A stretch of 56,898 bases of DNA, filler included, from Sandaracinaceae bacterium (GCA_947483975.1; 3 parts of 3 records of this genome joined end to end with filler, not necessarily neighbours in it); one strand, 5' to 3'; positions 36,200 through 56,898 are shown, counted from the first letter of the whole stretch. The notes: generated from the letters alone by a model not told the origin. Numbers and translations are program-made.

Positions 36200-36248
36200 G
36201 CGCGCGAAGGTACGCCGACGACGCGGCGACGGCGAGCGCGACCCGCGC

Positions 36249-36887: not shown

Positions 36888-36911
36888 TGGCGTCGAGGAT
36901 AGCCGAGGCTG

Positions 36912-37751: not shown

Positions 37752-37772
37752 GCGCGCCGCAGACACGCTCGA

Positions 37773-37846
37773 CGCCAGCGATCGCTACATGCTCATCGCC
37801 AGCGATCGCTACATGCTCATCGCCAGCGATCGCTACATGCTCATCG
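37773..37846. repeat. Perfect 24-bp tandem repeat, three copies (CGCCAGCGATCGCTACATGCTCAT)
   Basis: Identical units at 37773, 37797 and 37821; each contains the palindrome AGCGATCGCT and, on the minus strand, ATG AGC ATG TAG. Confidence 0.95.
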
Positions 37847-37961
37847 TCGTGCCGCCGTCGGTCGGCGTGCTCGACGGGCACATCGCCACGCTCGAGTTGA
37901 AGCAGGTGCCGGTGCCGCGGTCGCAGCACACGGGGAGCGAAGGCGTCGGGTTCGACGGGCA
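37833..37961 (-). CDS. C-terminal fragment of a Cys-rich protein truncated at the gap (not in the ORF track)
   Basis: Reads CPSNPTPSLPVCCDRGTGTCFNSSVAMCPSSTPTDGGTTMSM* with GC3-rich codons; convergent on tauE. Confidence 0.6.
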   Translation of the reverse strand, partial: CPSNPTPSLPVCCDRGTGTCFNSSVAMCPSSTPTDGGTTMSM

Positions 37962-37963
37962 GC

Positions 37964-38063
37964 NNNNNNNNNNNNNNNNNNNNNNNNNNNNNNNNNNNNN
38001 NNNNNNNTTAATTAATTAANNNNNNNNNNNNNNNNNNNNNNNNNNNNNNNNNNNNNNNNNNNN
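37964..38063. other. Assembly gap with artificial linker TTAATTAATTAA (38008-38019)
   Basis: Same N44-linker-N44 structure as the first gap. Confidence 0.98.
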
Positions 38064-38065
38064 CC

Positions 38066-39946
38066 GCTGAGGCCTCCGTGCGCACCTTCGGCGCGGCGTC
38101 CCGCCCGAGCACCCTCGCGCACCTCGCCGAGGCGTTCGACGCGCGCGAGGACGACACCCGCATCGGCGCAGCCGTGCGCGTCGCGACCGAGGGCGCGGAC
38201 GTCGGCGCGGTCGTCGTCGTCTCGGACGGCGCCGATCACACCGAGGGGCTGCGCGCAGAGTCGCTCGCACGTCTCGGCGTGAAGGTGCACGTCGTCGCGC
38301 TCGGCGCGCGCGCGCAACTCCGCGACGACGCCATCGCCAGCGTCGAGGCCGACGCGACGACGTTCTTGCGGCAGCCCGCCCGCGTGCGCGTCGTCGTGCG
38401 CTCGACGGGAGGCGAGGGCGGTCCCCTCCCCATCACGCTCCGCAGCGGCGCCACGGTGCTGCGCGAGGCCGTCGTCGACGTGCCCGCGGGCGGCGAGGCG
38501 GCGCTCGAGCTTCCGTTCACGCCCGACACGCTCGGGCGCGCCGCGTTCACCGTCTCGATTCCCGTCGCGCAGGGCGACGATGTGCCCGAGAACAACGAGC
38601 GCGCGTTCCTCGTGCGGGTCGTGCGCGACAAACTGCGCGTGCTCCTCGTCTGTGGTCGACCGAGCTCCGACGAGCGCTTCTTGCGCGCGTTCCTCAAGCG
38701 CGATCCGTCCATCGATCTGATCTCCTTCTTCATCCTGCGCAGCACCTCCGACCTCACGATGTCGTCGAGCAACGACCTCGCGCTGATCCCATTCCCGACC
38801 GACGAACTCTTCAGCGAGCACCTCGGCTCGTTCGACCTCGTGCTCTTTCAAAACTTCGACTTCGCGCCCTATCAGATGGAGCAGTACCTCTCGAACGTGC
38901 GCGACTACGTCGGGCGCGGGGGCTCGTTCGGGATGATCGGCGGGGAGCTCTCCTTCGCTGGAGGCGCGTACGCAGAGACGCCGATCGCGGACGCGCTGCC
39001 CGTCGTCGTCCCGCCGACCTCGACGCCCGAGACAGAGGCGATCGACACGACGACGTTTCGCCCCGAGGTCTCCGCGGAGCTCGGTCGTCATCCGCTCGTG
39101 ATGCTGCAGCCTGACCGCGCGCAGAGCGCCGCTGCGTTTCGCTCGCTCGCGCCGCTGCACGGAGTGAACGTCGTGCGTGGGCTGCGCGGCGATGGCAGCG
39201 CGCTGCTCGTGCACCCCACGCTGCGCGACAGCACCGGCAAGCCCCTGCCGGTGCTCGCGGTCGGCACGATGGGCAAGGGTCGCACGCTCGCGCTGATGAC
39301 GGACGAGAGCTGGCGCTGGGGCATGGCGACCGCGGGCGCGACGGGCGATGCCACCGCCTACGATCGCTTCTGGGATCGCGTCGTGCGTTGGCTCGCGCGG
39401 GACCCGGCGCTCGAGGCGGCGCAGCTCACGACCGACCGCAGCTCGTATGGTCCGCGGGGCCGCGTCACCGCCGACGCGCTCCTGCGCGACGCTCGCTACG
39501 AGCCGCTCGCGGACCGCGCGCTGACGCTGGTCGTGCTGCGCGCGGAAGAAGAGATCTCGCGCGTCGTCGGGCGCACGGACGGAGACGGTCAGGCGCACCT
39601 CGAGTTCACCGCGCCCGAGCAGCCGGGGGCGTATCGCGTCGTCGCGCGCGTCGAGGGCGCGCCGACGCCGCTCGCTTCTGAGGTCTTCGTCGTGGAGACG
39701 GGAGGCGATGAGCTCGCCGACCCGCGCGCTCGCCCCGAGCTTCTCCGCGCCATCGCCGCGGCGACGGGAGGCTCGTACTACGCCGACCCCGCGGATGCGC
39801 CCGCGCTCTCGCGCTTCGACACGACGCGCACCCGCTCGCTCGGCACGACCGAGAGCGCGCCGTTCGCGACGTGGCCCGCCGTGCTCTGCGTCGCCCTGCT
39901 CTTCGCGGCGGAGTGGCTCGTGCGGCGCCGTTGGGGCCGGACGTAG
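38066..39946 (+). CDS. VWA / Ig-like / class I glutamine amidotransferase-like membrane protein, 5'-truncated
   Basis: T.IG.A...VVVSDG (VWA-like); ENN; LRVLLV.GRPS...RFLR..LKRDP; GG.F.MIGG; G.GR......SWRW; C-terminal EW..RR.WG TM. Confidence 0.8.
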   Translation, partial: AEASVRTFGAASRPSTLAHLAEAFDAREDDTRIGAAVRVATEGADVGAVVVVSDGADHTEGLRAESLARLGVKVHVVALGARAQLRDDAIASVEADATTFLRQPARVRVVVRSTGGEGGPLPITLRSGATVLREAVVDVPAGGEAALELPFTPDTLGRAAFTVSIPVAQGDDVPENNERAFLVRVVRDKLRVLLVCGRPSSDERFLRAFLKRDPSIDLISFFILRSTSDLTMSSSNDLALIPFPTDELFSEHLGSFDLVLFQNFDFAPYQMEQYLSNVRDYVGRGGSFGMIGGELSFAGGAYAETPIADALPVVVPPTSTPETEAIDTTTFRPEVSAELGRHPLVMLQPDRAQSAAAFRSLAPLHGVNVVRGLRGDGSALLVHPTLRDSTGKPLPVLAVGTMGKGRTLALMTDESWRWGMATAGATGDATAYDRFWDRVVRWLARDPALEAAQLTTDRSSYGPRGRVTADALLRDARYEPLADRALTLVVLRAEEEISRVVGRTDGDGQAHLEFTAPEQPGAYRVVARVEGAPTPLASEVFVVETGGDELADPRARPELLRAIAAATGGSYYADPADAPALSRFDTTRTRSLGTTESAPFATWPAVLCVALLFAAEWLVRRRWGRT

Positions 39947-39997
39947 GCCGCAGGGATCGACCTTGACTCCCTCGGAGCGTCGGGCCAAACAGCCGCC

Positions 39998-41005
39998 GTG
40001 TCGCCAAAATCAGCGGGAGTGCGTGGGTCCACCGTCCTCCTTCGTCGAGCGAAATCGCGCGCCGCGCGAGTCGCCTTCTCGCTCGCGCTGAGCGTCGCCG
40101 CGCTCTCCGGATGCGCCGACGGCAAGGTGACCTGTCGCGTCGGAACCGACTGCGCGAGCGGGATGTGCGGCTCCGACGGGACGTGCCTTCGCGGCGTCGA
40201 CGGGGGGCACGCCGACGCGGGTCCCGAGCCGCTCGACGCCGGTGACGTCCCCGACGCGACGAGCCCCGACGACACCGGCGTGCCCTTCGACGGCGGCGTG
40301 CTCGTGTGCGCGCCGGACCACGACGGCGTCGTGACGCGCGCCGAGGTGCCGCTGCGCGCGGGGCTCCGCGCCAACTTCCGCATCGCGCAGAGCGCCACCG
40401 TCTCGACCGTGGGCACGGTCACCGGCGCCGGTCGGACCTGGGACTTCTCGGGCAGCTACGCCGGCGACCACGACGAGCTGGTCGAGCTCCTCGCGCCCGG
40501 TGCGAACTGGTGGGCGGCGCAGTTCCCGACCGCTACCCACGCGGCCCGCATCTCGGCTTCTTCCGACAACCTCGGCGTTTTCCAGATTACCGATGATTCC
40601 CTGTTGCTGCTCGGCGTCGTCTCGCCGGCGAGCGGCGCGACGCAGACGCTCCTGCGCTACACGCCCGCCGTCAGGGTGCTCGCGTTTCCGCTCGTCGAGG
40701 GCACCGCGTTCACGACGACCTCGGCGGTGAGCGGGTCGGTGTCCGCGGTGCCGGTCTCCTTCACGGAGGTCTACACCTCGACCGTCGACGCCTCGGGCAC
40801 GCTCGTCACGCCGTTCGGCTCGACGCCTGCGTTGCGCGTCCGGACGGAGATGACCCGCACGAGCGTCGGCGTGACGCTGACGAGCCAGCGCCAGTTCACG
40901 TTCGTGGCGGAGTGCTTCGGCATCGCCGCGGTCGTCGTCTCGAACGCGCTCGAGGCCAGCGTGGAGTTCACCACGGCGTCCGAGATGCGGCGCCTTTCGC
41001 CCTGA
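39998..41005 (+). CDS. Hypothetical lipoprotein A (paralogue of 43578-44444)
   Basis: Lipobox LSGC, Cys-rich knot, DAG linker, then C.P..DG.....E, WDF, ECFG and EMRR motifs. Start 39998 or 40019. Confidence 0.75.
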   Translation: MSPKSAGVRGSTVLLRRAKSRAARVAFSLALSVAALSGCADGKVTCRVGTDCASGMCGSDGTCLRGVDGGHADAGPEPLDAGDVPDATSPDDTGVPFDGGVLVCAPDHDGVVTRAEVPLRAGLRANFRIAQSATVSTVGTVTGAGRTWDFSGSYAGDHDELVELLAPGANWWAAQFPTATHAARISASSDNLGVFQITDDSLLLLGVVSPASGATQTLLRYTPAVRVLAFPLVEGTAFTTTSAVSGSVSAVPVSFTEVYTSTVDASGTLVTPFGSTPALRVRTEMTRTSVGVTLTSQRQFTFVAECFGIAAVVVSNALEASVEFTTASEMRRLSP

Positions 41006-41014
41006 GGCCTGACG

Positions 41015-41995
41015 ATGCGCCTCTCGCTCTTCGCGCTCGTCCTCGCCACGCTGTCGTCTGGCTGCTTCGCGTTCTACTCGGGCGCGCTGCCCGACGAGCC
41101 CGCGAACGCGCGCTTCATCTCCCTCGACGGCGTGCGCGTGCACTACGTCGACGAGGGCCACGGCAGCCCCGTCGTGTTGATCCACGGCTTCGCGTCGTCG
41201 CTCGAGACTTGGACCGCGGTGATCCCCGAGCTCGTGCGCCACGGGCACCGCGTCATCGCGCTCGACCTCCGCGGCTTCGGCTGGACCGACCGCCCGCCCG
41301 GCGACTACTCGAGCGAGGCTCAGGCGCGGCTCGTGCTCGCGTTGATGGACCGCCTCGGCGTCGAGCGCGCGGCCATCGTCGGGCACAGCTACGGAGCCGG
41401 CGTGGCGCTGCGCTTGGCGCTGCTCGCCCCGGAGCGAGTCGAGCGCATCGCGCTCTACGATGCTTGGGCCTACAGCGATCAGCTGCCCGCGTTCTTCCAC
41501 GTCGCGCGCATGGACGGTGTCGGCGAGGCGATGTTCGCGACTTGGTACGGGCAGCGCGCGGAGGACCGCATCGCGCTCGCCTTCTACGACCAGCGCTATG
41601 TGACGATCGAGCTCGTCGACGCCGTCGAAGCCGCGCTGCAGAAGCCGGGGACCTACGCCGCGTCTCTCGCGGCGATCCGCGCGATGCACTACGAGACCGT
41701 CGAGAGTCAATACCGCACCATCGAGCAGCCCGTGCTGCTGCTGTGGGGGCGCGAGGACCGCGTCGTGCCGCTCGCCATCGGTGAGCGCATGTCGCGCGAG
41801 CTACCCGGCGCGCGGCTCGTCGTATACCCGGGCTGCGGTCACTTCCCGATGATCGAGCACGCGCGGCAATCGACCGCGGAGCTCGTGCGCTTCCTCGAGG
41901 CTTCTGCTCCCGCGCTCGTTCCCGCGCACCCCGTCAGCAACGTCGAGGCGACCGACGCACAGGCGCCGATCGCCACGGACGGCGCGACGCCATGA
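41015..41995 (+). CDS. Lipoprotein alpha/beta hydrolase
   Basis: Lipobox SSGC; HGF, DLRGFG, GHSYG nucleophile, WG.ED, GHFP. Confidence 0.92.
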   Translation: MRLSLFALVLATLSSGCFAFYSGALPDEPANARFISLDGVRVHYVDEGHGSPVVLIHGFASSLETWTAVIPELVRHGHRVIALDLRGFGWTDRPPGDYSSEAQARLVLALMDRLGVERAAIVGHSYGAGVALRLALLAPERVERIALYDAWAYSDQLPAFFHVARMDGVGEAMFATWYGQRAEDRIALAFYDQRYVTIELVDAVEAALQKPGTYAASLAAIRAMHYETVESQYRTIEQPVLLLWGREDRVVPLAIGERMSRELPGARLVVYPGCGHFPMIEHARQSTAELVRFLEASAPALVPAHPVSNVEATDAQAPIATDGATP

Positions 41996-43581
41996 GCCGC
42001 CTCCACGCCCCGACGCTCGCGCTCGCCTGCGCGTTTGCGCTGCTCACGCCGCGTTCCGCTTCGGCGCAGTTTCACTCGGTCGGCAACGACATCCGCGAGC
42101 ACGACGCGCCCGACAAATTCTCGTTCGAGCTGCACGGCTATCTCCGCACTCGTGGGGAAATTCTCTCCAACCTCGATCTCGACCGTGGCCTCAGCCCGTC
42201 CGGTGAGCCGCTCTTCGCGGTGCCGCTCGACGACCCGAGCGGGCAGAACCTCTATCAGGCGGATATGCGCCTGCGCACCGATGCGTCGGTATACGCGCCG
42301 GGCGGTTCGGTCGCCGTGCATGTGCGCCTCGATCTCATCGACAACCTCACGCTCGGCTCGACGCCGGACGACATCCCCGCGGCGACCGTCGGGCAGCGCT
42401 TCCTCGACAGTTCCATTCATCTGCGGCGCGCGTGGGGCGAGGTGCTCACGCCGTTCGGCCTGCTCACGGTGGGTCGGCAGTCCAACAGTTGGGGTCTCGG
42501 CTTGCTCGCGAACGCTGGGGATTGTCCCGACTGCGATGGCGGCGACGCGGCGGATCGCATCGCCTTCACGACGCCTGTCGCGGGGCTGATCTGGTCGCTC
42601 GCCGTCGACATCTCCTCGACGGGCCCGCTCGGTCAGCGCGCGGCGGGCACACGCGCGGTCGACCTCACGCCGACCGACGACGTCAGCACCGTGACGCTGG
42701 CGGCCCTGCAGTGGCTCGGTGACGCGGCGCGCAAGCGGCGGCACGTCGCGGGGCGCACGAGCACGGAATACGGCGCGTATCTCTCGTATCGCTGGCAGCA
42801 GGGCGATACCCCGACTTCGTATCTGCCGACGAGCACGCCGGTCGGGCTGACCGCCGCGCAGGTCGTGCCGCGCGGGCTCAACGCCATCGCCACCGACGTG
42901 TGGCTCCGCATCGAGCAGCGCGCTTTTCGCCTGGAATTCGAGGGCGCGCTCCTCTACTCGAGCATCGAGTCGACCTCGCTGATCCCGGGCGTGCTCCTGC
43001 GTGACTCAGTCACTGGAACGCAGTTCGGCGGCGCGCTCGAGACAGACTTCCTTCCGCGCGACGGCGCGGTCACCTTCGGACTCGACCTCGGTTATGCGTC
43101 GGGGGACTCGGCGCCCGGCTTCGGCGCGTTCCCGCGCACGCTCCAGGCGAGCCCGCTGCCAGGTGATCTCGACGGTCCGCAGGCGACCCTCCCGTACGAC
43201 ACGACAGTCGACAACTTTCGCTTTCATCCGGACTACCGCGTCGACCGGATTCTCTTCCGCGAGATCATCGGCCGCGTCACGGACGCCTACTACTTCCGCC
43301 CGCACGTGCGCTGGCGCCTGTTCGATCAGCCCTTCGGCACGCTCGCGCTGACCGCGTCGGGGGTCGCCTCGTTCGCCGTGTTCGCGAGCTCGACGCCCGG
43401 CAATCGCAGCCCGCTCGGCGTGGAGATCGACCCGGCGCTGACCTACGAGAGCGGTGACGGCTTCACCGCCGCGGTCGAGTATGCGGTGCTCTTCCCGCTC
43501 TCCGGCTTCTCGAACCCCGAAGCGGGGCTGACCGCGACCCCCGCGCAGCTGCTTCGGCTGCGCCTGCAGCTAGCCTATTGA
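41992..43581 (+). CDS. TIGR04551-like outer-membrane beta-barrel protein
   Basis: Signal peptide (ASAQ); GYLRTR, ADMRLR, RAWGEV.TP.G...GR...WGLG...N.G.C.DCD, FRFHPDYRVD.ILFREI.G; terminal beta-strand ending in Tyr; ATGA overlap. Confidence 0.8.
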   Translation: MSRLHAPTLALACAFALLTPRSASAQFHSVGNDIREHDAPDKFSFELHGYLRTRGEILSNLDLDRGLSPSGEPLFAVPLDDPSGQNLYQADMRLRTDASVYAPGGSVAVHVRLDLIDNLTLGSTPDDIPAATVGQRFLDSSIHLRRAWGEVLTPFGLLTVGRQSNSWGLGLLANAGDCPDCDGGDAADRIAFTTPVAGLIWSLAVDISSTGPLGQRAAGTRAVDLTPTDDVSTVTLAALQWLGDAARKRRHVAGRTSTEYGAYLSYRWQQGDTPTSYLPTSTPVGLTAAQVVPRGLNAIATDVWLRIEQRAFRLEFEGALLYSSIESTSLIPGVLLRDSVTGTQFGGALETDFLPRDGAVTFGLDLGYASGDSAPGFGAFPRTLQASPLPGDLDGPQATLPYDTTVDNFRFHPDYRVDRILFREIIGRVTDAYYFRPHVRWRLFDQPFGTLALTASGVASFAVFASSTPGNRSPLGVEIDPALTYESGDGFTAAVEYAVLFPLSGFSNPEAGLTATPAQLLRLRLQLAY

Positions 43582-44444
43582 TGGAGTCCGTGATGCGAGC
43601 CAGTCCCACTGCACTCCTGCTCTCTCTGCTTCCCGTCGTGACAGCGCTGCTCGGCTGCGGGCCCAATGCCACGCATCCCGTGCGCCCTCCCTTCGAGTCG
43701 GACGGCGCCGTGCCGCCGCTCTCGTGCGTGCCCAACCTCGACGGACGCATCGACGCGCGCGAACTCGAGCCCACCTTCGGTACGCCGGTGTCGTTCCTCG
43801 TGTCGCCCGCCGGCGAGGAGCGCCCGATCGACGTGCTCGGCGCGCCCGCCGCAGATGGCACGCGCCGCTGGGACTTCGGCATCGACTACAGCTCGGACCG
43901 CGTCGCGCGCTCGACCGCGCTCGTGCCCTCGACCTTGTGGTATGGGCCGGATTTTCCCACCGCCGAGGTCTCCGTGCCGACGGATCCGAGCGGTGCGATC
44001 GACGGGCTCTACCGCCTCGACGACGCGGGCTTCTACCTGCTCGGGCTCGCGAGCCACGAGGCGGATCCGCCCGAGGGGCGCACGCTGCTCCCCTACGCGA
44101 CTCCCATCTTGCTCTTTCAGCTTCCGCTGACGCCGGGCGCAGAGTGGATCAGCGCCGCGGACGTCTCCGGCACGGTGCGCGGCTTGCCCTATGCGGGGCG
44201 CGATACCTACGAGAGCCACGTCCCCGCGATGGGCGAGCTCGTCCTGCCCGACCTCAGCTTCACTCAGGCGATGCGCGTCGCGACGCGCGTGACGATCTCC
44301 CCGGCGGCGGGCGCCCCCATCATTCGTCGGCAGAGCACCTTCGTGTTCGAGTGCTTCGGCCAAGTCGCGAGCGTCAGCGCGCGGGACGGCGACGACGTCG
44401 AGGACTTTTCCATCGCGGCCGAGATGCGGCGCTTCGGGCTCTGA
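43578..44444 (+). CDS. Hypothetical lipoprotein B (paralogue of 39998-41005)
   Basis: Lipobox LLGC; CVPNLDG, WDF, FECFG, EMRR; overlaps the barrel stop codon. Confidence 0.78.
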   Translation: MMESVMRASPTALLLSLLPVVTALLGCGPNATHPVRPPFESDGAVPPLSCVPNLDGRIDARELEPTFGTPVSFLVSPAGEERPIDVLGAPAADGTRRWDFGIDYSSDRVARSTALVPSTLWYGPDFPTAEVSVPTDPSGAIDGLYRLDDAGFYLLGLASHEADPPEGRTLLPYATPILLFQLPLTPGAEWISAADVSGTVRGLPYAGRDTYESHVPAMGELVLPDLSFTQAMRVATRVTISPAAGAPIIRRQSTFVFECFGQVASVSARDGDDVEDFSIAAEMRRFGL

Positions 44445-44454
44445 GGAGGACTGA

Positions 44455-44787
44455 ATGACTCTCTTCGACAAGTGGAAGAAGGGATTCGACGCGGTGGAAG
44501 TGCGCGTCGCGAAGCTCTCGAATCGCGTGCTCGAGAACCCCGCGGTGCTCGAGCCGGCAGGGATGCTGCTCTCGTCTCTGATGCGCAGAAAGGCTCGCAC
44601 CGACCGGATGCTGACGAGCGTCTGGAGCGCCGTCGGGCTGCCGAATCGCCGCGATCAAGAGCGCACGCTGCGCCTGCTGACCGTGCTCGAGCGTCGCGTG
44701 ATCGACCTCGAGGAGAAGCTCGACGACGCGCGGGAGGCAGCGAGTCGCGCGCAGCTCGAGAGTGCCATTCCGTCGAGGGAGCGCTGA
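44455..44787 (+). CDS. Small PhaE/PhaR-like PHA synthase partner subunit (110 aa)
   Basis: GAGGAG RBS; W..VGLPNRRDQ...L..LERRV.DLEEKL coiled coil resembling the PhaE C-terminus; two genes upstream of phaC. Confidence 0.62.
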   Translation: MTLFDKWKKGFDAVEVRVAKLSNRVLENPAVLEPAGMLLSSLMRRKARTDRMLTSVWSAVGLPNRRDQERTLRLLTVLERRVIDLEEKLDDAREAASRAQLESAIPSRER

Positions 44788-44790
44788 GTC

Positions 44791-46562
<1,772 letters not shown>

Positions 46563-46566
<4 letters not shown>

Positions 46567-47594
46567 TGCAACCCCGGGAAGCGGTCAGCGGTCTCGCGCG
46601 GTTGTTCGGTCGCCCGGCGCCGCTCGTCGGGCAGACCCCCGCGGACGTGGTGCACGAGGAGAACAAGTGGCGCTTGCTGCGCTATGTGCCGCGCCCCGAT
46701 GGGATCGCGTTTCGCACTCCGGTGCTGCTGATTCCCTCGCTGATCAATCGACACTATGTGCTCGACTTGATGCCCGGAAAGAGCTTTGCGCAGAGCCTCG
46801 TCGCGGCGGGGCACGACGTCTACGTGATCGACTGGGGCACTCCTGAGGCGGAGGATCGCTTCGTGTCGTTCGAGGACATCGTCGTCGGCGCCATCGGGCG
46901 CGCGCTCCGCGTCGCGACCCGCACCTCGGGGGCAGACGCCGCGCACGTGCTCGGCTACTGCCTCGGCGGGACGCTCGCGGTGTTGCACGCGGCGCTCGAT
47001 TCCTCGCGGATTCGCTCGCTCACGCTCGTCGCCGCGCCAGTCGAATTTCACGACGATGGGCTGCTCTCGCGCTGGACGCGGACGAGCACGCTCGACACTG
47101 GCGCGCTCGTCGAGGGCGCGGGCAACGTGCCTTGGCAGCTGATGCAGGGCGCGTTTCAGCTCTTGCGTCCGACGCTCCCGCTCGTGAAGGCGGTGTCCCT
47201 CGCGCAGAAGGCGTGGGACGACCCCTTCCTCGATGGCTTCTTCGCCATCGAGACTTGGGGCAACGACAACGTCAGCTTCCCCGGCGCGTGCTGGCGCACC
47301 TATGTCGAGGAGCTCTATCGCAAGAACGCGCTGCTCGCTGGCTCGCTCCGCGTCGGTGGGCGTCCGGTCGCGCTGTCGGCGCTCCGGACGCCGCTCCTCT
47401 GCGTCACCTTCGAGCATGACGAGATCGTCCCGCACGCGAGCGCGACGGTCGTCCTCGACTACGCCTCGAGCACCGACACCGAGCGCATTCACCTCCCCGG
47501 CGGTCACGTCGGGGCGATGGTCTCGAGCTCTGCGGCGAAGAAGCTCTGGCCGCGCATGCGCGCGTTCTGGGCCGCGCGCGACTCCCACGCTTGA
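46563..47594 (+). CDS. phaC: Class III/IV-type polyhydroxyalkanoate synthase subunit
   Basis: 343 aa; GQTP..VV, P.LINR.YVLDL.P, DWG.P, GYCLGG (catalytic Cys), D.IVP, GGHVG. Confidence 0.88.
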
Positions 47595-47612
47595 ACCCCT
47601 CCGAGAGCCCGA

Positions 47613-48272
47613 ATGCACGCCCCGACTCCCCACGCTTCGTCCCCGACTCCCGCTCTCCCGTTTGGTGAGCCGACGCCGCTCGGCTTGCTCGGGCTCGCGA
47701 TCGGCTGCGGGGCGCTCGTCCCGATCGCCTTTGGCATGATCCCGAGCGACCCGGCGCGCGCAGGCGCGATGTTCTCGACTGCAGCCTGGTTCTGTCTGCT
47801 CTTCGGCGGCGGCTGTCAGTTCCTCGCGGGCGTGATGTCGCTCGCGAACAAGAACACGCTCGGCGGGACGCTGCTGACGACGTTCTCGTTCAACTGGGTG
47901 ATGAACTGGTACGCGCTCTCCGAAGCCTCGCACGGCCGCGCGGTGGATCCGGCCGTCGGCTTCTCGGTGGACGTCACCTTCATCCTCATCTTCCTCGTGC
48001 TCACCTACGCCTTCGGCTTCTATTCGAAGCTGCTCTTCGCGTTCCTCGTCGACATCGACGCGCTCTATCTCCTGCGCATCGTCAAGCACCTCGTCGGACC
48101 GACGCACTCCCTCGCTCCGGCGCTCGGTGTCGGCGTCGGCGTCGCGACCCTGCTGCTGATGGCGCTCGCGCTCTACATCTCGTTCGCGCTCCTCGTGAAC
48201 CCTGCGGCGGGGCGCGCGGTCTTCCCGACGGGCGGAGCGCTCTTTCGCGCGACGCCCCCTCCCGCTGCTTGA
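47613..48272 (+). CDS. GPR1/FUN34/YaaH (SatP/AceTr) carboxylate channel
   Basis: FGEPTPLGLLG (variant of the NPAPLGL motif), FGGGCQFLAG, NTLGGT, FNW; six TM. Confidence 0.82.
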   Translation: MHAPTPHASSPTPALPFGEPTPLGLLGLAIGCGALVPIAFGMIPSDPARAGAMFSTAAWFCLLFGGGCQFLAGVMSLANKNTLGGTLLTTFSFNWVMNWYALSEASHGRAVDPAVGFSVDVTFILIFLVLTYAFGFYSKLLFAFLVDIDALYLLRIVKHLVGPTHSLAPALGVGVGVATLLLMALALYISFALLVNPAAGRAVFPTGGALFRATPPPAA

Positions 48273-48303
48273 GCGCCCGTTGCGCTGAGTCCTGCGGCGA
48301 CTT

Positions 48304-49575
48304 ATGAGAATGCCCATGTTTTATCAGCTCCAAGACCTCTCGCGTCGGGCGCTCACGCCCGTCGCCGCGGCCGCTCGAGTCTCGGCCAAGCTCCTGCGCA
48401 AGGCGCCAGTCCCCGGCGCGCCCTTCGCCGCTGCAGGCTGGGAGCTCGTGCATCGCCTGACGAAGGGCTATCAGCAGCCCGCCTTCGACATCCCGTCGGT
48501 GATGCTCGACGCGGAGGAGCTGCCGCTCAACGAGGAGGTCGTCGTCGAGACTGCCTTCTGTCGCCTCGTGCGCTTTGCGCGCGTCACGACCTCTGCGGAG
48601 ACGCAGGCGCGCCTCGACGCTCAGCCCAAGGTGCTCCTCTGCGCGCCGCTGTCGGGGCATCACGCGACGCTGCTGCGCGACATGGTGCGGAGCCTCGCGC
48701 CCGAGCACGACGTCTACATCACCTGTTGGATCGACGCGAAGGAGATCCCGGTCAAAGCGGGGCGCTTCGGGCTCGACGAGTACATCGAGCATCTGATGCA
48801 GTTCATTCGGCACCTCGGCGCCGCGGATCTGCACCTGATGGCGGTGTGCCAGCCAGCCGTGCCCGCGCTCGCCGCGGTGTCGCTGCTCGCGTCCGCGGGG
48901 GAGCGCACGCCGCGCACGCTGATCATGATGGGCGGCCCGATCGATGGGCGGCGCTCACCGACGGCGGTCAACAAGGTGGCGACGGAGCGCCCGCTCTCGT
49001 GGTTCCGCGACAACCTCGTCTATCGAGTCCCGCTCGGCCATGCAGGTCGCGGACGCCGTGTGTATCCGGGGTTTCTGCAGCTCACGGCGTTCGTGTCGAT
49101 GAACCCCAAGCGACACCTGCACTCGTATCGAACGTATTGGCTCGATCGCATCTCAGGCAAGCAGGAGAGCGCGGCGTCCCACGAGAAGTTCTACGACGAA
49201 TACAACGCGGTCCTCGACATGGACGCGGACTACTACCTCGAGACGGTGCGCGTCGTCTTCCAAGAGCACGCCATCGCGAAGGGCACGATGTCCGTCAGAG
49301 CCCAGAAGGTCGTGCCGAGCGACATCCGCGACACCGCCATCATGACGGTCGAGGGCGCGGACGACGACATCACCGGGGCAGGGCAGACGCACGTCGCGCT
49401 CGAGCTCTGCCGCGGCGTGCCCGCGGAGCGCACGCGCAAGCTGACGGCCGAGGGCTGCGGGCACTACGGGATCTTCTCGGGCAGCAAGTTCCGCGAGTCG
49501 ATCTTCCCGGAATTGCGCGCGTTCATCCGCCAGCATCACCAGGCGTCGCCAGCCGCGCTCGCGAGCCCGCAGTGA
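48304..49575 (+). CDS. phaZ: Intracellular PHB depolymerase (PhaZ1/PhaZa type)
   Basis: APLSGHHATLLR, AVCQP (catalytic Cys), MGGPID, GRRVYPGFLQL, FYDEY.AV.D, DDITG.GQT, GHYGIF.G. Confidence 0.94.
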   Translation: MRMPMFYQLQDLSRRALTPVAAAARVSAKLLRKAPVPGAPFAAAGWELVHRLTKGYQQPAFDIPSVMLDAEELPLNEEVVVETAFCRLVRFARVTTSAETQARLDAQPKVLLCAPLSGHHATLLRDMVRSLAPEHDVYITCWIDAKEIPVKAGRFGLDEYIEHLMQFIRHLGAADLHLMAVCQPAVPALAAVSLLASAGERTPRTLIMMGGPIDGRRSPTAVNKVATERPLSWFRDNLVYRVPLGHAGRGRRVYPGFLQLTAFVSMNPKRHLHSYRTYWLDRISGKQESAASHEKFYDEYNAVLDMDADYYLETVRVVFQEHAIAKGTMSVRAQKVVPSDIRDTAIMTVEGADDDITGAGQTHVALELCRGVPAERTRKLTAEGCGHYGIFSGSKFRESIFPELRAFIRQHHQASPAALASPQ

Positions 49576-50582
49576 GTGCCCCGCGCGGAACGTCGCGGCG
49601 CGCTCGCCATCTGTCTGCCGCGCTGCTCTCGCTCGCGGCAGCGAGCGGCGCCCTCGGCTGTGGCTCGGAGACCACTCCCCATCGCCCGGATGGAGGCTCC
49701 TCCGCGGACGCGGGCCCGCTCGACGCGGGCGACCCGTCGCTCGACGCGGACCTCTCCGACGCCGGCGCGCTCGACGCGGAGACTCCCGCAGATGCAGGTT
49801 CCTTCGATGGGGGAGGGGCCTCGCGCTGCACGGTCACGCCGACGTCCGTGGCGTGTCCGCACGAGACGACGACCGTCTCCACGGGCGCGGCGCTGCCGCT
49901 CCGGCACGTGCACTTCCAGGTCCCGCTCGGTACCCCGCCCGTGACTGGCTTCCCTGTCGTGATCGCGTTCCAGGGCACGGCGCTCCCGGCGGCGCTCACC
50001 TGGGCGGGCGCGAGCACGGATCCCTACGGCATGTATTACCAAGCCCTCGTCGTCGCGCGGTTGCTCGATGCGGGCTACGCGGTCCTGACGCCTGAGACTG
50101 CCAATGATGGCGCGTCGTATTACGACACCAACGTCCCCCTCTATTCGACCGCCTGGGAGACCGCGCCCGATCATCAGCTGATGCTCGGGATCTTCGCCGG
50201 GATCGAAGCGGGAGATTTCGGTCCGCTGAATCCCTCGGCGCTGTTCGCGGTCGGCTTCTCGAGCGGCGGCTACATGACGAGCCGAATGGCCGTCTCGTAT
50301 CCGGGTCGCTTCCGGTCGCTCGCGATCCAGTCGGCGTCCTACGCGACGTGCGGCGGTGCGCTCTGCACGGTTCCGGCGACGCTGCCGGCGGACCATCCGC
50401 CGACGCTGTTCCTCCACGGCGGCGCCGATACCTTCGTGCCGATGGCGACGATGGTCCCCTACGAGGCGCAGCTGCGCGCGCAGGGTATCGCGACGCGCAT
50501 CGTCACAGAGTCGACGCGTGGGCACGAGTGGCTACCCGCCTCGCCTGACGAGGTGCTCGCCTGGTTCGACGCGTCCCGCTGA
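49572..50582 (+). CDS. Lipoprotein extracellular mcl-PHA depolymerase-like hydrolase
   Basis: GTG 49572 overlaps the phaZ stop; lipobox ALGC plus DAG linker; GFSSGGYMTSRMAVSYPG...SYATC.G.LC.VP..LPADHPPTLFLHG..D...GHEW, closely recalling Pseudomonas fluorescens GK13 PhaZ. Confidence 0.8.
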   Translation: MSAPRGTSRRARHLSAALLSLAAASGALGCGSETTPHRPDGGSSADAGPLDAGDPSLDADLSDAGALDAETPADAGSFDGGGASRCTVTPTSVACPHETTTVSTGAALPLRHVHFQVPLGTPPVTGFPVVIAFQGTALPAALTWAGASTDPYGMYYQALVVARLLDAGYAVLTPETANDGASYYDTNVPLYSTAWETAPDHQLMLGIFAGIEAGDFGPLNPSALFAVGFSSGGYMTSRMAVSYPGRFRSLAIQSASYATCGGALCTVPATLPADHPPTLFLHGGADTFVPMATMVPYEAQLRAQGIATRIVTESTRGHEWLPASPDEVLAWFDASR

Positions 50583-50636
50583 CCCACGGGTGCGCGCCCC
50601 TCTGAGCGCCCTGCGCACGCGAACACGGAGGCTCCG

Positions 50637-52277
50637 ATGACGAGTTGTCCCTACGCACACGGCCTCGACAAGAACCTCGCGAACTACACGCCGCTGACGC
50701 CGCTCACGTTCCTCGACAGGTCGGCGTACGTCTATCCGGACCGCCTGTCCCTGATCCACGGGCAACGCCGCTACACCTGGGCTGAGACGTACGCGCGCAG
50801 TCGTCGGCTCGCGTCGGCGCTCGTGCTCGCCAACATCGTGGTCGGAGACACGGTGTCCGTGATGCTCAACAACACTCCAGAGATGTTCGAGTGTCACTTC
50901 GGCGTGCCGATGGCGGGCGCCGTGCTGAACACGCTCAACACGCGCCTCGACGCCGAAGCGCTGGCCTTCATGCTGAATCACGCCGAGACCAAGGCGCTGA
51001 TCACCGACCGCGAGTACTCCCCGATCGTCGAGCGAGCGCTGCAGTCGCTCGGGCGCGATATCCTCGTGATCGACGTCGATGATCCCGAGTACGAAGGCGT
51101 CGGGATGCGCCTCGGGCAGCTCGAATACGAGGCGTTCCTGTCGAGCGGAGATCCCTCGTTCGCCTGGAAGAACCCCGCGGATGAGTGGGACGCGATCTCG
51201 CTCAACTACACCTCGGGCACGACGGGGAATCCGAAGGGCGTCGTCTATCACCATCGAGGTGCGTATCTCAATGCGCTCTCGAACATCGTCTCTTGGGGGA
51301 TGCCGCCGCAGTCGGTGTACCTGTGGACGCTGCCGATGTTCCACTGCAACGGCTGGTGTTTTGCGTGGACGATGGCCGCGAATTCGGGGACGAACGTCTG
51401 CCTGCGGCGCGTCGAGCCGAAGCTGATCTTCGACGCGATTCGGGAGCACAAGGTGAGCCACTACTGCGGCGCGCCCATCGTGCACTCCCTGCTGATCAAC
51501 GCACCGGCGGAGCTACGCAAGGGCATCGAGCACCGGGTGTGCGCCCTCGTCGCTGCGGCGCCGCCTCCCGCCGCGGTGATCGAGGGAATGGGCACGATCG
51601 GCTTCGACATCACGCACGTCTATGGGCTGACGGAGACGTACGGGCCTGCCGCGGTATGCGCGAAGCACGAGGAGTGGCTGGAGCTTCCGCTCGACGAGCA
51701 GGTGCGCCTCAACGGGCGACAGGGCGTCCGCTATCACTGCGAGGAGGGCCTCTCCGTCCTCGACCCGGAGACGATGGAGCCTGTGCCGCGCGACGGCGCG
51801 ACGATGGGCGAGGTGATGTTTCGCGGCAACATCGTGATGAAGGGCTACTTGAAGAACCCCGACGCGACCGCCGAGGCGTTTCGGGGTGGCTGGTATCACA
51901 CGGGTGATCTCGCCGTGATGCAGCCTGACGGCTACGTGAAGATCATGGACCGCAGCAAGGACGTGATCATCTCGGGCGGCGAGAACATCTCGTCGATCGA
52001 GGTCGAGGACATCCTCTATCGACACCCCGCAGTGCTCGCCGCTGCGGTCGTCGCGACGCCGGATCCGAAGTGGGGCGAGGTGCCGTGCGCGTTCATCGAG
52101 GTGCGCGAGGGCGTGACCGTCACGGCGTACGAGCTGCGGGCGTTTTGTCGCGAGCGAATGGCGCACTTCAAGGTGCCCAAGAGCTTCGTCTTCGAGGCGC
52201 TCCCGAAGACCTCGACCGGCAAGGTGCAGAAGTACCTGCTGCGCGAGCGCGCGAAGTCGACCGCCGTCTTCGAGTAG
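50637..52277 (+). CDS. Short/medium-chain acyl-CoA synthetase (PRK08162-like)
   Basis: ANY.PLTPL.FL.R, YTSGTTGNPKG, LWTLPMFHCNGW, YGLTE.YGP, DR.KD.IISGGENISS, LPKTSTGKVQK; GGAGG RBS. Confidence 0.93.
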   Translation: MTSCPYAHGLDKNLANYTPLTPLTFLDRSAYVYPDRLSLIHGQRRYTWAETYARSRRLASALVLANIVVGDTVSVMLNNTPEMFECHFGVPMAGAVLNTLNTRLDAEALAFMLNHAETKALITDREYSPIVERALQSLGRDILVIDVDDPEYEGVGMRLGQLEYEAFLSSGDPSFAWKNPADEWDAISLNYTSGTTGNPKGVVYHHRGAYLNALSNIVSWGMPPQSVYLWTLPMFHCNGWCFAWTMAANSGTNVCLRRVEPKLIFDAIREHKVSHYCGAPIVHSLLINAPAELRKGIEHRVCALVAAAPPPAAVIEGMGTIGFDITHVYGLTETYGPAAVCAKHEEWLELPLDEQVRLNGRQGVRYHCEEGLSVLDPETMEPVPRDGATMGEVMFRGNIVMKGYLKNPDATAEAFRGGWYHTGDLAVMQPDGYVKIMDRSKDVIISGGENISSIEVEDILYRHPAVLAAAVVATPDPKWGEVPCAFIEVREGVTVTAYELRAFCRERMAHFKVPKSFVFEALPKTSTGKVQKYLLRERAKSTAVFE

Positions 52278-52281
52278 GCCG

Positions 52282-53103
52282 CTAGGCGCGCCCGGCGCCC
52301 GCGAACTGCGGGCTCCGCTCGAGCTGCGCGAGCGCGTCGCTCGGCGCGTCGCTCGGGAAGGGCGCAGAGGACCGCCGTACGCGCTCGAGCCAGCGCGCTT
52401 CGAGCGGATTCTGAACATCAGAGGGCGAGACGGCTGCGTAAGTGCTGTGCTTCTCCTCGCCGATCGGCACGCCGACGCCTACGTAGAAGCCCGCGAGGAG
52501 CAGCGCCGAGCGCGTCGCCGTCGCGCCGCTGTAGGTGTGCACGGTGCAGCCCGCGCGACAGAGACGGCGCAGCGCGCGAAACGCCGTCAGCGTCCAGAGC
52601 GTGGGATTGGCGCGGGGCGAAAACGGGTCCCAATAGACGATATCGGCGGCCTCCGCGGCCTCCGAAGAGAGGGAGTCTGGGAGCTCGCCAGGGCAGAATC
52701 GCCACGTGGTGCGCGGCGTGTCGTGCGAGCCGTGGGCGAGCAATGCGTGTGCGGCGACGCCCGGCGCGCCGTCGAGCGCGAAGTCGCCCGCGTGCTCGAG
52801 CGCGAGCGCGAGCGCGTCGGCGGTGCGGTCGAAGCTGACGATGCGGAGGCGACGCGCGTCAGGCGGGAGTGCCTCCGAGACGCGCCAGGCGGCGAGCGCG
52901 TTGGACCCCGCGCCGAGTCCGACGTCGAGCAAAACGAGCGGTCCCGCCGCAGGCTCTGCGAGGCGCTCCGCGAGGCGGGAAGGGTCGACGTAGAGCCTGC
53001 GCGACTCGACGAGGGGCCCGACGACGGGGTGCATCACCTCGCCTGTCTCGTGATCGAGCACGGCGCGCGCGCCGCCGCGCGTCGTCACGACCTCGCACTT
53101 CAT
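52282..53103 (-). CDS. Stand-alone MnmC-type (MnmD / DUF752-like) SAM-dependent methyltransferase
   Basis: GEVMHP, DVGLGAG.N, WDPFSP..NP.LW, TYS..T..R..L..AGF; ATGA overlap with tgt. Confidence 0.8.
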   Translation of the reverse strand: MKCEVVTTRGGARAVLDHETGEVMHPVVGPLVESRRLYVDPSRLAERLAEPAAGPLVLLDVGLGAGSNALAAWRVSEALPPDARRLRIVSFDRTADALALALEHAGDFALDGAPGVAAHALLAHGSHDTPRTTWRFCPGELPDSLSSEAAEAADIVYWDPFSPRANPTLWTLTAFRALRRLCRAGCTVHTYSGATATRSALLLAGFYVGVGVPIGEEKHSTYAAVSPSDVQNPLEARWLERVRRSSAPFPSDAPSDALAQLERSPQFAGAGRA

Positions 53104-54254
53104 GTGGGGGACTCGCTCGCGCCGATACGCCGATCACTGTGCTCGTGTCGGTCGATCGCCTCGAGTTTCGTCTTCGCCCAAGGGGCGAAGTGACCCGCTT
53201 CGATGGCGGCCCGCGCGTCGGACATCAGCGAGTGATAGTGGTGCAGGTTGTGCACCGAGAGGAGCCGCGGGCCGAGTGGTTCGGCGCACTTCGCGAGGTG
53301 ATGCAGGTAGGCGCGGGAGAAGCGCGCGCAGGTCGGGCAGGCGCACGCGGCGTCGAGCGGGACGTCCTGCGTCGCGTGATAGGCGCGCGTGAGCTTGACG
53401 CGCCCCGTCGAGGTGAACGCCGTGCTCTGCCAAGCGAGGTGCGTCGGGAGGATGCAATCGAACATATCGACGCCCGCGAGCATCGCTTGGAGCAGGTCGG
53501 GCGGAGTGCCGACGCCCATCAGATAGCGAGGTCGATCCGCGGGCAGGAGGTCAGTCGCCATCGCCGTGATCTGCTCGCGATCGGCCCGAGTGTCCCCGAC
53601 GGCGAGTCCCCCGAGCGCGAAGCCGTCGAACGCGTGCGCGGTGAGAAACGCGGCCGATTCGCGGCGCAAGTCGGGCACGACGCCGCCCTGCACGATGGCG
53701 AAGAGCGCCTGGGTGTCGTTCTGTCGGGCGGCGAGGCTGCGCACGGCCCAACGGTGCGTGCGCTCCATCGCGGCGCGCATGGACTTCTCATCAGAGGTGG
53801 AGTCGAGACAGACGTCGAGCACCATCATCAGATCAGAGCCAATCGCCGTCTGCACCTCGATAGATTTCTCCGGCGAGAGGAGGTGGAAGCTCTGATCGAT
53901 GTAGCTGCGAAACCGCGCACCACGCTCGTTGATCGTGCGGTCGCCCGGCAGCGAGAAGATCTGATATCCGCCCGAGTCCGTCAGGACGGGGCCATCCCAG
54001 CCCATGAAGGCGTGAATCCCGCCGACCCGTCGAAACAGCTCCACGCCAGGGCGCAACATCAGATGATAGGTGTTGCCGAGCAGCACCTGCGCGCCTGCCG
54101 CGCGGAGGTCGTCGGGCGTCAGTCCCGTGACCGTCGCGCGGGTGCCGACGGTCATGAAGACGGGAGTCTCGATCCGCCCGTGCGGCGTGGTGAGCGTGCC
54201 GCGGCGCGCGCGGGACTCGCGGTCGACCGCGCTCACGGTGAAGGGGAGGGGCAT
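53100..54254 (-). CDS. tgt: tRNA-guanine transglycosylase family protein (divergent)
   Basis: ETPVFM.VGT, NTYHL, TDSGGYQ, QGG, GGLAVG, PRYLMGVG, DMFDC, C.C..C...HN zinc site. Confidence 0.9.
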   Translation of the reverse strand: MPLPFTVSAVDRESRARRGTLTTPHGRIETPVFMTVGTRATVTGLTPDDLRAAGAQVLLGNTYHLMLRPGVELFRRVGGIHAFMGWDGPVLTDSGGYQIFSLPGDRTINERGARFRSYIDQSFHLLSPEKSIEVQTAIGSDLMMVLDVCLDSTSDEKSMRAAMERTHRWAVRSLAARQNDTQALFAIVQGGVVPDLRRESAAFLTAHAFDGFALGGLAVGDTRADREQITAMATDLLPADRPRYLMGVGTPPDLLQAMLAGVDMFDCILPTHLAWQSTAFTSTGRVKLTRAYHATQDVPLDAACACPTCARFSRAYLHHLAKCAEPLGPRLLSVHNLHHYHSLMSDARAAIEAGHFAPWAKTKLEAIDRHEHSDRRIGASESPT

Positions 54255-54301
54255 CGGGCGCGCAACCTAGCAGGCTGCAACGTAGGCGCGCGGTCGAGCC
54301 C

Positions 54302-54994
54302 TCATGGACACGCGTCGGACGCGCTCTCGACGACGGGCACGTCGACCGCGCCGACGAGCGAGATGCCGCTGTCGCCGAAGACGTCACAGTCGTCGAGCGT
54401 GACGTCGAACGTCGCGCTGAAGCGCCCGCCTCGCACGAGTGAGAGTTGGTCGATGACGACGGTGCCGACGCCGCAAGGGCCGACCGTCACGCTCGGTGCG
54501 TCGGTGCGGACGTAGACCAAGCTGAGCGGTGAGCTCAGGTCTGCATAGAGCACGTTCACCCCGACGGTGATCGAGCCCTCGGCGACGCTCGCTGCGGCGA
54601 AGCGCACTTCGAGGCGCTCGCCGTCGGTGAGACCGCAGCCGCCCTCCGTGAGCCCGACGACGAGCTCGGGGCGGGCGCACGACTCTCGATCCCAGCGCGC
54701 GGTGACCTGAGTCGGGAGGAAGCCCGAAGGCCGCGTCAGGGAGCTCCCGGTGCGGGGGAAGGCCGCGCAAAAACCGCCCAGCCCCGAGTCGAGGCTCGCG
54801 TCGGCGTGCCCGCCGTCGAAGCTGACGCTGAGGTCGACCGGGCCGCCGTCGGTCGGAGGCGGCACGCAAAACGGCACGCACGGTCCGACGCTGCCGTCGA
54901 GGCCCGGTGCCGGCGGCGGATGTGCCGGCGGGTCGCCGCAGCCGAGGAGCGTCGCGCAGAGCAAGGCGAGCGAAACGGTCGCTGGGCGGAGCAT
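54302..54994 (-). CDS. Hypothetical lipoprotein
   Basis: Lipobox LLGC, Pro/DGG linker, beta-rich Cys-containing body. Confidence 0.7.
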   Translation of the reverse strand: MLRPATVSLALLCATLLGCGDPPAHPPPAPGLDGSVGPCVPFCVPPPTDGGPVDLSVSFDGGHADASLDSGLGGFCAAFPRTGSSLTRPSGFLPTQVTARWDRESCARPELVVGLTEGGCGLTDGERLEVRFAAASVAEGSITVGVNVLYADLSSPLSLVYVRTDAPSVTVGPCGVGTVVIDQLSLVRGGRFSATFDVTLDDCDVFGDSGISLVGAVDVPVVESASDACP

Positions 54995-55040
54995 GGGAGC
55001 AGCCTATCACCCGGCGCGTGACGGGGCGCCCCGGCGGCGT

Positions 55041-56897: not shown

Positions 56898-56898
56898 C

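Follow-up and report, generated by a model that had tools for sequence, protein, structure and literature searches.

Polyhydroxyalkanoates (PHA) are a major bacterial carbon store, and little has been charted of what becomes of them once cells die or fall to predators. Described systems that build, recycle or take up such material each resemble some part of the gene cluster analysed here, which comes from the metagenome-assembled genome (MAG) of a Sandaracinaceae-like bacterium (GCA_947483975.1). The whole stretch of DNA analysed, hereafter the window, is 56,898 nt long, and the cluster comprises eleven co-oriented genes that run from envelope lipoproteins and an outer membrane beta-barrel of the TIGR04551 family to a PHA synthase (PhaC) and beyond. 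In relatives, the first seven of these genes face a gene for the PHA-sensing repressor PhaR. We see roughly even chances that this locus serves PHA utilisation and storage, taking up PHA breakdown products and re-polymerising them directly.

Comparison with described systems

The synthase is closest to those of class III (PhaEC) and class IV (PhaRC). It shares with them a PhaC of ~340 amino acids (aa), a Cys-Asp-His triad and a class III model as best hidden Markov model (HMM) match, and its predicted small partner resembles PhaE at the C-terminal end, with a weaker likeness to the PhaR subunit of Bacillus. Unlike in those classes, PhaC here falls below the family cut-off, the partner is only ~95-110 aa long, and a ligase gene is wedged between the subunit genes. 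In the vectorial acylation of Escherichia coli, the outer membrane barrel FadL and the cytoplasmic ligase FadD work together with no dedicated inner membrane pump. The same uptake logic of barrel plus ligase is proposed here, although our barrel is of the ~18-stranded Occ/AlgE/MOMP class and not of the FadL kind, three lipoproteins are added and the product would be stored as polymer. Sus-like loci of Bacteroidota combine in one operon a lipoprotein hydrolase, binding lipoproteins and an outer membrane barrel for polymer fragments. That layout recurs here, but with no TonB-dependent SusC-type barrel and no member of the SusD family; the proposed substrate is a polyester, and the locus ends in a polymerase.

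Two parts of the proposed chemistry are already established elsewhere, namely a PhaC fed by a ligase and the use of prey PHA by a predator. In Pseudomonas putida, the ATP-dependent acyl-CoA synthetase FadD1 re-activates free (R)-3-hydroxyacids for PhaC (PMC8764540). As in that PHA cycle, a ligase and an intracellular depolymerase (PhaZ) stand with phaC in our cluster; the P. putida pha cluster as drawn in that source (phaC1ZC2D, phaIF), however, holds no ligase gene and its cycle is internal, whereas here the ligase gene overlaps phaC and is joined to outer membrane genes. In Bdellovibrio, an extracellular-type medium-chain-length (mcl) PHA depolymerase of the predator hydrolyses prey PHA to oligomers (PMC4834554). 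Our cluster also encodes an extracellular-type mcl-PHA depolymerase, which passes the NF050057 cut-off; it is a lipoprotein encoded inside a pha operon, whereas the portion of the Bdellovibrio account considered here describes no link to a synthase, a PhaR operator or an outer membrane channel. With the PhaR (AniA) regulons of alpha- and beta-proteobacteria, the relatives of our locus share the PHB_acc_N regulator and a TGC-N3-GCA core that flanks the -35 element, as in the Sinorhizobium meliloti phasin promoters described below. They differ in that the operon under this control specifies envelope proteins together with a synthase instead of phasins alone, and the window has neither regulator gene nor operator.

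PHA genes have been reported in most activated-sludge Myxococcota genomes (10.1101/2024.04.26.591422). The layout described here is widely conserved and apparently undescribed. The preliminary description of this DNA had supposed as much, and titles and abstracts on PHA synthases of myxobacteria and Myxococcota yielded no account of it; the supplementary pha locus tags of the activated-sludge study, which may bear on priority, lay outside this comparison. No paper was found on TIGR04551 by name, and the literature on oligomer uptake held nothing relevant.

The gene cluster

The window joins three contigs of one MAG (5.29 Mb, 524 contigs, 81% complete), which occupy positions 1-19020, 19121-37963 and 38064-56898, and the cluster lies entirely inside the third. 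The MAG is from lake water, and the stretch is matched in lake and freshwater metagenome runs of several studies but in no RNA run. Logan contigs from another study bridge 38279-41208 and 41321-44183 (run X5) as well as 43302-44547 and 49668-51329 (run X7), in each case with few differences. The features are as follows, with g1-g11 denoting the eleven cluster genes in order, all on the plus strand.

39947-39997 (+): upstream spacer with a -35-like CTTGAC; in relatives, the divergent promoter region between phaR and lipoprotein A
39998-41005 (+): g1, lipoprotein A, with lipobox, Cys-rich motif, low-complexity linker and a C-terminal domain paralogous to lipoprotein B
41015-41995 (+): g2, lipoprotein alpha/beta-hydrolase with a GHSYG serine box (Abhydrolase_1)
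41992-43581 (+): g3, TIGR04551 outer membrane beta-barrel with signal peptide, ~18 strands
43578-44444 (+): g4, lipoprotein B, a predicted YmcC-like soluble beta-barrel; likely start ATG at 43593
44455-44787 (+): g5, mini-PhaE, a 110-aa coiled coil resembling the C-terminal part of PhaE
44791-46566 (+): g6, acyl-CoA ligase 1, FadD11-like, with AMP-binding_C_3; 4-nt overlap with phaC
46563-47594 (+): g7, PhaC, class-III-like, Cys nucleophile
47613-48272 (+): g8, putative distant AceTr/SatP-type membrane protein (PF01184)
48304-49575 (+): g9, intracellular PHA depolymerase PhaZ (TIGR01849)
49572-50582 (+): g10, lipoprotein extracellular-type mcl-PHA depolymerase (NF050057); GTG start overlapping the phaZ stop
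50637-52277 (+): g11, acyl-CoA ligase 2 (PRK08162 family)

Independent calls of open reading frames (ORFs) reproduced the eleven co-oriented genes of the preliminary description, as well as its four start/stop overlaps, each of 4 nt (g2/g3, g3/g4, g6/g7 and g9/g10), and its spacing of 3-54 nt elsewhere (measured gaps of 9, 10, 3, 18, 31 and 54 nt). Its eleven gene labels all stand, some of them weakly, on the strength of Pfam and NCBIfam scans, reading of the sequence and orthologues. The same scans matched no thiolase, PhaB, PhaJ or PhaG family, in keeping with its remark that the cluster contains no phaA, phaB, phaJ or phaG. The sequences of g1, g2, g4 and g10 show lipoboxes, g3 has a signal peptide, and orthologues keep these features.

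Conservation of the locus

What is conserved is a string of seven genes (lipoprotein A, hydrolase, barrel, lipoprotein B, mini-PhaE, ligase and PhaC) together with the gene for the repressor PhaR, which faces it. The SatP-type protein, PhaZ, the mcl depolymerase and ligase 2 were added in particular lineages. The preliminary description had presented all eleven genes as one system; g1-g7 are indeed kept with pha genes, but the unit that is conserved consists of these seven and PhaR.

A scan of species-representative genomes gave 39 PhaC-anchored loci, 25 of which, by tblastn with all window proteins, contain the full seven genes in order. The barrel block is present in 28 of the 31 loci that have at least 6.6 kb of upstream sequence; in one locus (L032) lipoprotein A was not detected, and a masked stretch is adjacent. 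The other PhaC-anchored loci are either too short to judge or distant (two Acidimicrobiales records).

In a barrel-anchored scan of metagenomes, 80 of 250 relatives were kept, and counts were made over the loci with enough flank. Lipoprotein A and the hydrolase accompany the barrel in 45/45 loci, lipoprotein B in 54/54, phaR in 37/39, PhaC in 28/31, the ligase in 27/31 and mini-PhaE in 25/31, with three of the 28 PhaC matches being of a different type (~30% identical). Six of these loci are exceptional (L078, L121, L069, L067, L084 and L126). Two of them (L078 and L121) have phaR facing a divergent PhaC located before lipoprotein A, and L069 has a ligase and a divergent-type PhaC beyond phaR.

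Among 200 Myxococcota species genomes at least 90% complete, HMM searches found a PhaC-family match (E 1e-60 or better) in 73 and a barrel match (E 1e-80 or better) in 50. The barrel reaches at least 370 bits in 42 genomes, and 38 of these have a PhaC-family match on the same contig within ~7 kb (tables read by hand). For 23 of these 38 genomes, the high-scoring PhaC orthologue shares the strand of the barrel and lies 1.4-4.5 kb downstream of it. The remaining four of the 42 are fragmented assemblies with PhaC on another contig. The module is present in about a fifth of the sampled species. Eight further genomes have low-scoring barrels only (274-326 bits), and one of the eight has any PhaC match; as low-scoring barrels mostly occur without PhaC, the linkage belongs to one TIGR04551 subfamily.

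Linkage between the envelope half and the pha genes, on which the preliminary description had made its reading depend, is strong in both directions. The block is kept between phaR and mini-PhaE across families, and since the synteny is conserved, the arrangement is more than chance.

PhaR and its operator

Pfam searches of the flanking ORFs identified a PHB_acc_N regulator divergent from lipoprotein A in relatives. By tblastn, phaR is present in 30 of the 39 PhaC-anchored loci, where it adjoins lipoprotein A, or mini-PhaE where the block is absent. The intergenic regions between phaR and lipoprotein A carry palindromes, up to three and at least one, whose core is TGC-N3-GCA. One of these lies 4-8 nt 5' of TTGAC in 12 loci, often with a second copy ~60 nt further on. 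The published account of S. meliloti PhaR gives a YGCRNYGCR core, in two copies that flank the -35 element of phasin promoters (PMC12542648), and the palindromes of our relatives agree with this core and with its placement.

The window has a different upstream region. A reading by eye of the 200 nt upstream of lipoprotein A found no palindrome, homology to relatives starts inside lipoprotein A, and no phaR stands beside it. A GATase1-like/MG2-domain gene (38078-39946, plus strand) abuts lipoprotein A and takes the place that phaR and the operator occupy in relatives. The breakpoint is just 5' of the retained -35-like CTTGAC, and the junction is spanned by an independent contig. An assembly error was considered as the cause of the missing phaR and rejected, as the contig from the other study bridges the junction. 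The sole PhaR of the MAG, a copy with 40% identity, is encoded on contig C16, with Tat, extracytoplasmic function (ECF) sigma and anti-sigma genes as neighbours and no pha genes. The window has lost both phaR and its operator.

The synthase core

Mini-PhaE of the window (g5) has no family match at default thresholds. When 25 members of its family were aligned and each was scanned singly, 20 matched the last ~55 positions of the PhaE model TIGR01834 (best E 5.4e-9), 15 matched PF09712 and six matched the Bacillus PhaR synthase subunit (phaR_Bmeg). The window's own protein reaches 14.8 bits (E 0.015) with TIGR01834, against a cut-off of 154.95, at model positions 263-320 of 324. The orthologues thereby support the label mini-PhaE that the gene had been given, and the matches indicate a C-terminal PhaE-like remnant, not a member of the PhaE family.

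Ligase 1 is an AMP-binding protein whose best family match is FadD11-like and whose best PDB matches are the adenylation domains of carboxylic acid reductases (5e-38). Its position between mini-PhaE and PhaC is kept in relatives, in PhaC-anchored and barrel-anchored loci alike, and its 4-nt overlap with phaC suggests translational coupling. PhaC itself scores 252.9 bits with the class III model TIGR01836 (cut-off 365.3), compared with 156 bits for class I and 64 bits for class II. Its best PDB match is the Cupriavidus necator PhaC 5hz2 (9e-33), in which GFCVGG aligns with GYCLGG of the window and the Asp and His are in register; the Cys box GYC[LM]G[GA] is found in 24/24 PhaC orthologues. The PhaE-like gene is conserved two genes upstream of PhaC, and the pairing of the two subunits is a prediction from this gene neighbourhood. 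None of g5, g6 and g7 has a membrane segment.

This is the single true PhaC in the MAG. Another contig (C83:3444-4454, minus strand, locus L002) contains a 1167-aa open frame with a PhaC-like domain that scores 135 bits with TIGR01836, and the window's PhaC also matches PRK07868, a model of fused PhaC-like/acyl-CoA synthetase proteins. Because of this frame and this match, the same genome may also encode a fused ligase-PhaC form.

The envelope block

Lipoproteins A and B are paralogues (31.5% identity, E 1e-25), with no further paralogue of either in the genome, and neither matched a Pfam or NCBIfam family. The predicted structure of lipoprotein B (pLDDT, a per-residue confidence score, 92) matches 4fvs (Z 9.9, 172 residues) and YmcC (2in5, Z 8.0) over 154-172 aligned residues, where the background is usually 7-8. 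LolA-type and other lipid-binding barrels score below the YmcC-like proteins (LolA and vitellogenin Z 4.5-6.5, FadL Z 4.3). Atlas clusters of the lipoprotein B type are commonest in Myxococcota. In lipoprotein A and its orthologues (39998-40200 in the window), a four-Cys motif, C-R-V-G-A-D-C-x-S-G-x-C-x(3-5)-G-x-C, directly follows the lipobox and is followed in turn by a low-complexity linker; lipoprotein B is without the motif.

The lipoprotein hydrolase g2 matches Abhydrolase_1 with 145 bits and the model i_nPHAscl with 83 bits against a cut-off of 300. Its best PDB matches are meta-cleavage-product hydrolases and esterases, and the PHB depolymerase 8ynv gives 77 bits.

The barrel g3 matches TIGR04551 with 376.4 bits (cut-off 300) over model positions 1-516 of 519. 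Its predicted model (pLDDT 77) has ~18 strands; the top Foldseek match is AlgE (9e-18), and in VIA comparisons MOMP (Z 24.6), AlgE (23.8) and OccD/OccK/OprD (22-23) are tied. Such a predicted fold would suit a specific channel, and it does not give the direction of transport. Of the earlier proposal that acids are imported through this protein, the barrel family is thus confirmed, but a barrel fold cannot separate import from export.

A second TIGR04551 gene in the MAG (contig C8:28568-30208, minus strand, locus L045) scores 457 bits, above g3. A search of the MAG found it unlinked to pha genes and without a paralogue of lipoprotein A or B. The TIGR04551 family includes members unrelated to pha genes.

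Downstream genes and recruitment of depolymerases

The genes after phaC vary between relatives. The SatP-type protein g8 scores 28.9 with PF01184 (Gpr1/Fun34/YaaH; cut-off 25) and 21.3 with the NCBIfam model AceTr_1 (NF038013; cut-off 50), and it has five hydrophobic stretches, two of them long enough for two helices each. Among the loci compared, a SatP gene is found 3' of phaC only in L006, L007, L008, L028 and L059, and it adjoins phaR in L095. There, a SatP-like gene 53% identical to g8 (L095:4908-5516, minus strand) lies beyond phaR and on the phaR strand, a second independent position. PhaZ (g9) scores 511.2 bits with TIGR01849 (cut-off 300.75) and 283 bits with PHB_depo_C; among the 39 PhaC-anchored loci, PhaZ together with SatP follows PhaC only in L006, L007, L008 and L028. 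Ligase 2 (g11) scores 956 bits with PRK08162 (cut-off 677), and no orthologue of it occurs at this position in any of the loci compared.

The depolymerase g10 has its GTG start at 49572, a lipobox and a GFSSGG box, and scores 313.1 bits with NF050057 (e_dPHAmcl; cut-off 270). The only homologue among the PhaC-anchored loci is in L007, where it is inverted, and the pair of depolymerase and ligase 2 in this order is found only in this MAG. Other extracellular-type depolymerases do occur at the locus. An mcl-type enzyme is encoded directly after phaC in L127 and L129, and a short-chain-length (scl) type after phaC in L122 and L123. In L070 (303 bits, cut-off 150) and L100, an scl-type gene ends a second arm to the left of phaR, and in L067 and L087 it adjoins phaR; in L021 it is cut by the locus edge. 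The depolymerases of L070 and L067 have a lipobox and a long low-complexity linker, like g10. In L067, the envelope block and phaR are accompanied by a small protein and by an scl-PHA depolymerase of extracellular type (239.6 bits, cut-off 150), but no synthase lies within 9 kb. Across various lineages, genes for extracellular-type PHA depolymerases have thus joined this locus repeatedly and at different positions.

The second arm and the supply of monomers

In many relatives, a further PhaC (~40% identical) is encoded beyond phaR, on its far side; a second match was obtained for 11 of 38 loci from genomes and for 16 of 40 from metagenomes. The order of this arm is phaR, a small protein with no family, PhaC2 and a PRK08217-like short-chain dehydrogenase/reductase (SDR). 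In two examples on the minus strand (L133:4172-6975 and L070:1870-5789), the small protein is a coiled coil and PhaC2 is class-III-like, and the L070 arm ends with a lipoprotein scl-PHA depolymerase. The small protein was considered as a second mini-PhaE and rejected, as it shows no BLAST likeness to g5 and belongs to no Pfam or NCBIfam family. The separate PhaC beside an SDR may be a reductase-fed synthase. The arm is absent from this MAG and from the Sandaracinaceae relatives L007 and L008; an SDR on MAG contig C28, 69% identical to that of the left arm, has no PhaC beside it.

The reading in the preliminary description presupposes that granule formation does not depend on phaA and phaB elsewhere in the genome. 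In its favour, no PhaB (TIGR01829) scores above the cut-off in this 81% complete MAG (best 239 against 302) or in any of five other module-bearing genomes; in many relatives, the second PhaC with its SDR means that the locus cannot in general be called free of a reductive route. FabG-like SDRs could perform the PhaB step. Family scans of the cluster and of the relatives' flanks found no hydratase or beta-oxidation gene in the locus.

A possible function for the locus

Gene families, gene order and conservation with phaR are observed directly, and from these we infer a mechanism. Surface-tethered depolymerases, of which g10 (mcl) is the candidate here and scl or mcl enzymes elsewhere, would cut outside or prey PHA to 3-hydroxyacid oligomers and monomers. 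The 18-strand TIGR04551 channel would pass these carboxylates across the outer membrane, where the two YmcC-like lipoproteins might hold the greasy products while the lipoprotein esterase g2 trims oligomers. Passage over the inner membrane could be by flip-flop or, in clusters that include it, via the SatP-like protein, after which ligase 1 would trap the acids as (R)-3-hydroxyacyl-CoA. Mini-PhaE and PhaC, as a two-part synthase, would polymerise these directly into granules, which PhaZ could mobilise later. In relatives, PhaR would repress the operon from the promoter-flanking palindromes, a control lost in this MAG; given such repression, polymer appearing in the cell would switch uptake on.

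Uptake with direct re-polymerisation is suggested because a free-acid ligase is wedged into a synthase operon, because an envelope block stands between this operon and a PHA-sensing repressor, and because tethered PHA depolymerases have been recruited repeatedly; we also count in its favour that the barrel fold equals those of the Occ/OprD carboxylate uptake channels. A more specific version is tentative, and we hold it to be somewhat less than an even bet: a polyester utilisation locus, in which PhaR would gate an envelope machine made up of a tethered depolymerase, an 18-strand channel, a pair of carrier lipoproteins and an oligomer esterase, and a dedicated ligase would couple this machine to a minimal PhaEC of its own, so that foreign or prey PHA is rebuilt monomer by monomer as the cell's own granules, bypassing central metabolism.

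A number of observations weigh against uptake with direct re-polymerisation. YmcC, the nearest fold relative named for lipoprotein B, belongs to a capsule operon, and the fold matches themselves (Z 9.9 and 8.0) appear barely to exceed the aligner background of 7-8. The predicted barrel is as like the exporter AlgE and MOMP as it is like the Occ channels. By its family matches, g2 is a generic alpha/beta-hydrolase outside the recognised depolymerase families, PhaC falls under the curated class III cut-off, and for the mini-PhaE of the window itself the matches to PhaE are no better than E 0.01-0.015. The string is complete except for the ligase in L023 and L031; phaR, mini-PhaE, ligase and PhaC occur without the block in L035, L039 and L040; and the barrel loci L084 and L126 have no pha gene within 9 kb. 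The MAG also contains two MaoC (PhaJ-like) genes and is only 81% complete. Lastly, the second PhaC and SDR of many relatives mean that granules in these need not depend on uptake.

Some of these points suit a more general scavenging of lipids or fatty acids, in which g2 would be a lipase or esterase, barrel and ligase would act like FadL and FadD, and beta-oxidation with PhaJ-type hydratases would feed PhaC. Ligase 1 is FadD11-like and its nearest solved relatives are adenylation domains of carboxylic acid reductases, g2 is generic, two MaoC-dehydratase genes are at hand in the MAG, and the lipoprotein fold resembles lipid-binding barrels such as LolA and vitellogenin. We nevertheless consider this explanation unlikely, as no hydratase or beta-oxidation gene is ever found in the locus, the genes that joined it repeatedly encode PHA depolymerases and not lipases, and control by a PHA-sensing PhaR suits a polyester better. 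It seems distinctly improbable, too, that the ligase-PhaEC core is an internal PHA cycle, re-activating monomers released by the cell's own PhaZ, with the envelope block as a separate nutrient or envelope module under shared PhaR control. With phaR on one side and mini-PhaE on the other, the block is part of a single co-oriented string that contains 4-nt overlaps, and it is kept there across families; lipoproteins A and B occur nowhere else in the genome, and L067 retains block, phaR and extracellular depolymerase without a synthase. Such a cycle would nonetheless explain the core without block in three loci, a ligase of just this kind serves the PHA cycle of P. putida (PMC8764540), and S. meliloti PhaR controls many transport genes outside poly(3-hydroxybutyrate) (PHB) metabolism (PMC12542648).

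Transport in the opposite direction is what AlgE, top-ranked by Foldseek, and the YmcC-type fold of the lipoproteins might bring to mind, with the envelope block exporting what the synthase or ligase makes, such as oligo-hydroxyacids or a lipid, or displaying it on the cell surface. We give this very little credence. VIA ties AlgE with MOMP and with the Occ uptake channels, the conserved string has no inner membrane exporter or synthase (g5-g7 being without membrane segments), an ATP-spending acid ligase is sensible for incoming free acids, and depolymerases were recruited rather than polymer-modifying enzymes. Overall, the preliminary interpretation, which had overlooked PhaR and the operator that the window lacks, is supported in part.

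If uptake with direct re-polymerisation is true, the locus would short-circuit the flow of carbon, which would pass from one polymer straight into another. TIGR04551 barrels would gain their first function, as would a lipoprotein family that is common in Myxococcota, and the PhaE/PhaC pair, new, minimal and equipped with its own ligase for activating monomers, would be relevant to PHA production from free hydroxyacids. Any carrier of the seven-gene string that can be cultured would allow a direct test of the hypothesis.

Surrounding sequence

Spacers of N occupy 19021-19120 and 37964-38063 of the window, and genes flanking either spacer are not genomic neighbours. A scan of the stretch for promoters and terminators was uninformative, with no promoter-like sites and two terminator-like sites against 5.0 expected. 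Downstream of the cluster, convergent genes on the minus strand (52282-56780) encode a Methyltransf_30 protein, a tRNA-guanine transglycosylase, an ORF with no family and a CheA-like hybrid kinase; none of these is kept beside the cluster in relatives.

In the Nannocystaceae-labelled locus L040, which has no upstream block, PhaC is followed on the plus strand (11039-17648) by a FabH-like ketoacyl synthase III (KAS III), an alpha/beta-hydrolase, three ORFs with no family, a 529-aa ORF with no family, a hydrolase 25% identical to g2 and a sodium:solute symporter. These downstream genes may form an analogous module.

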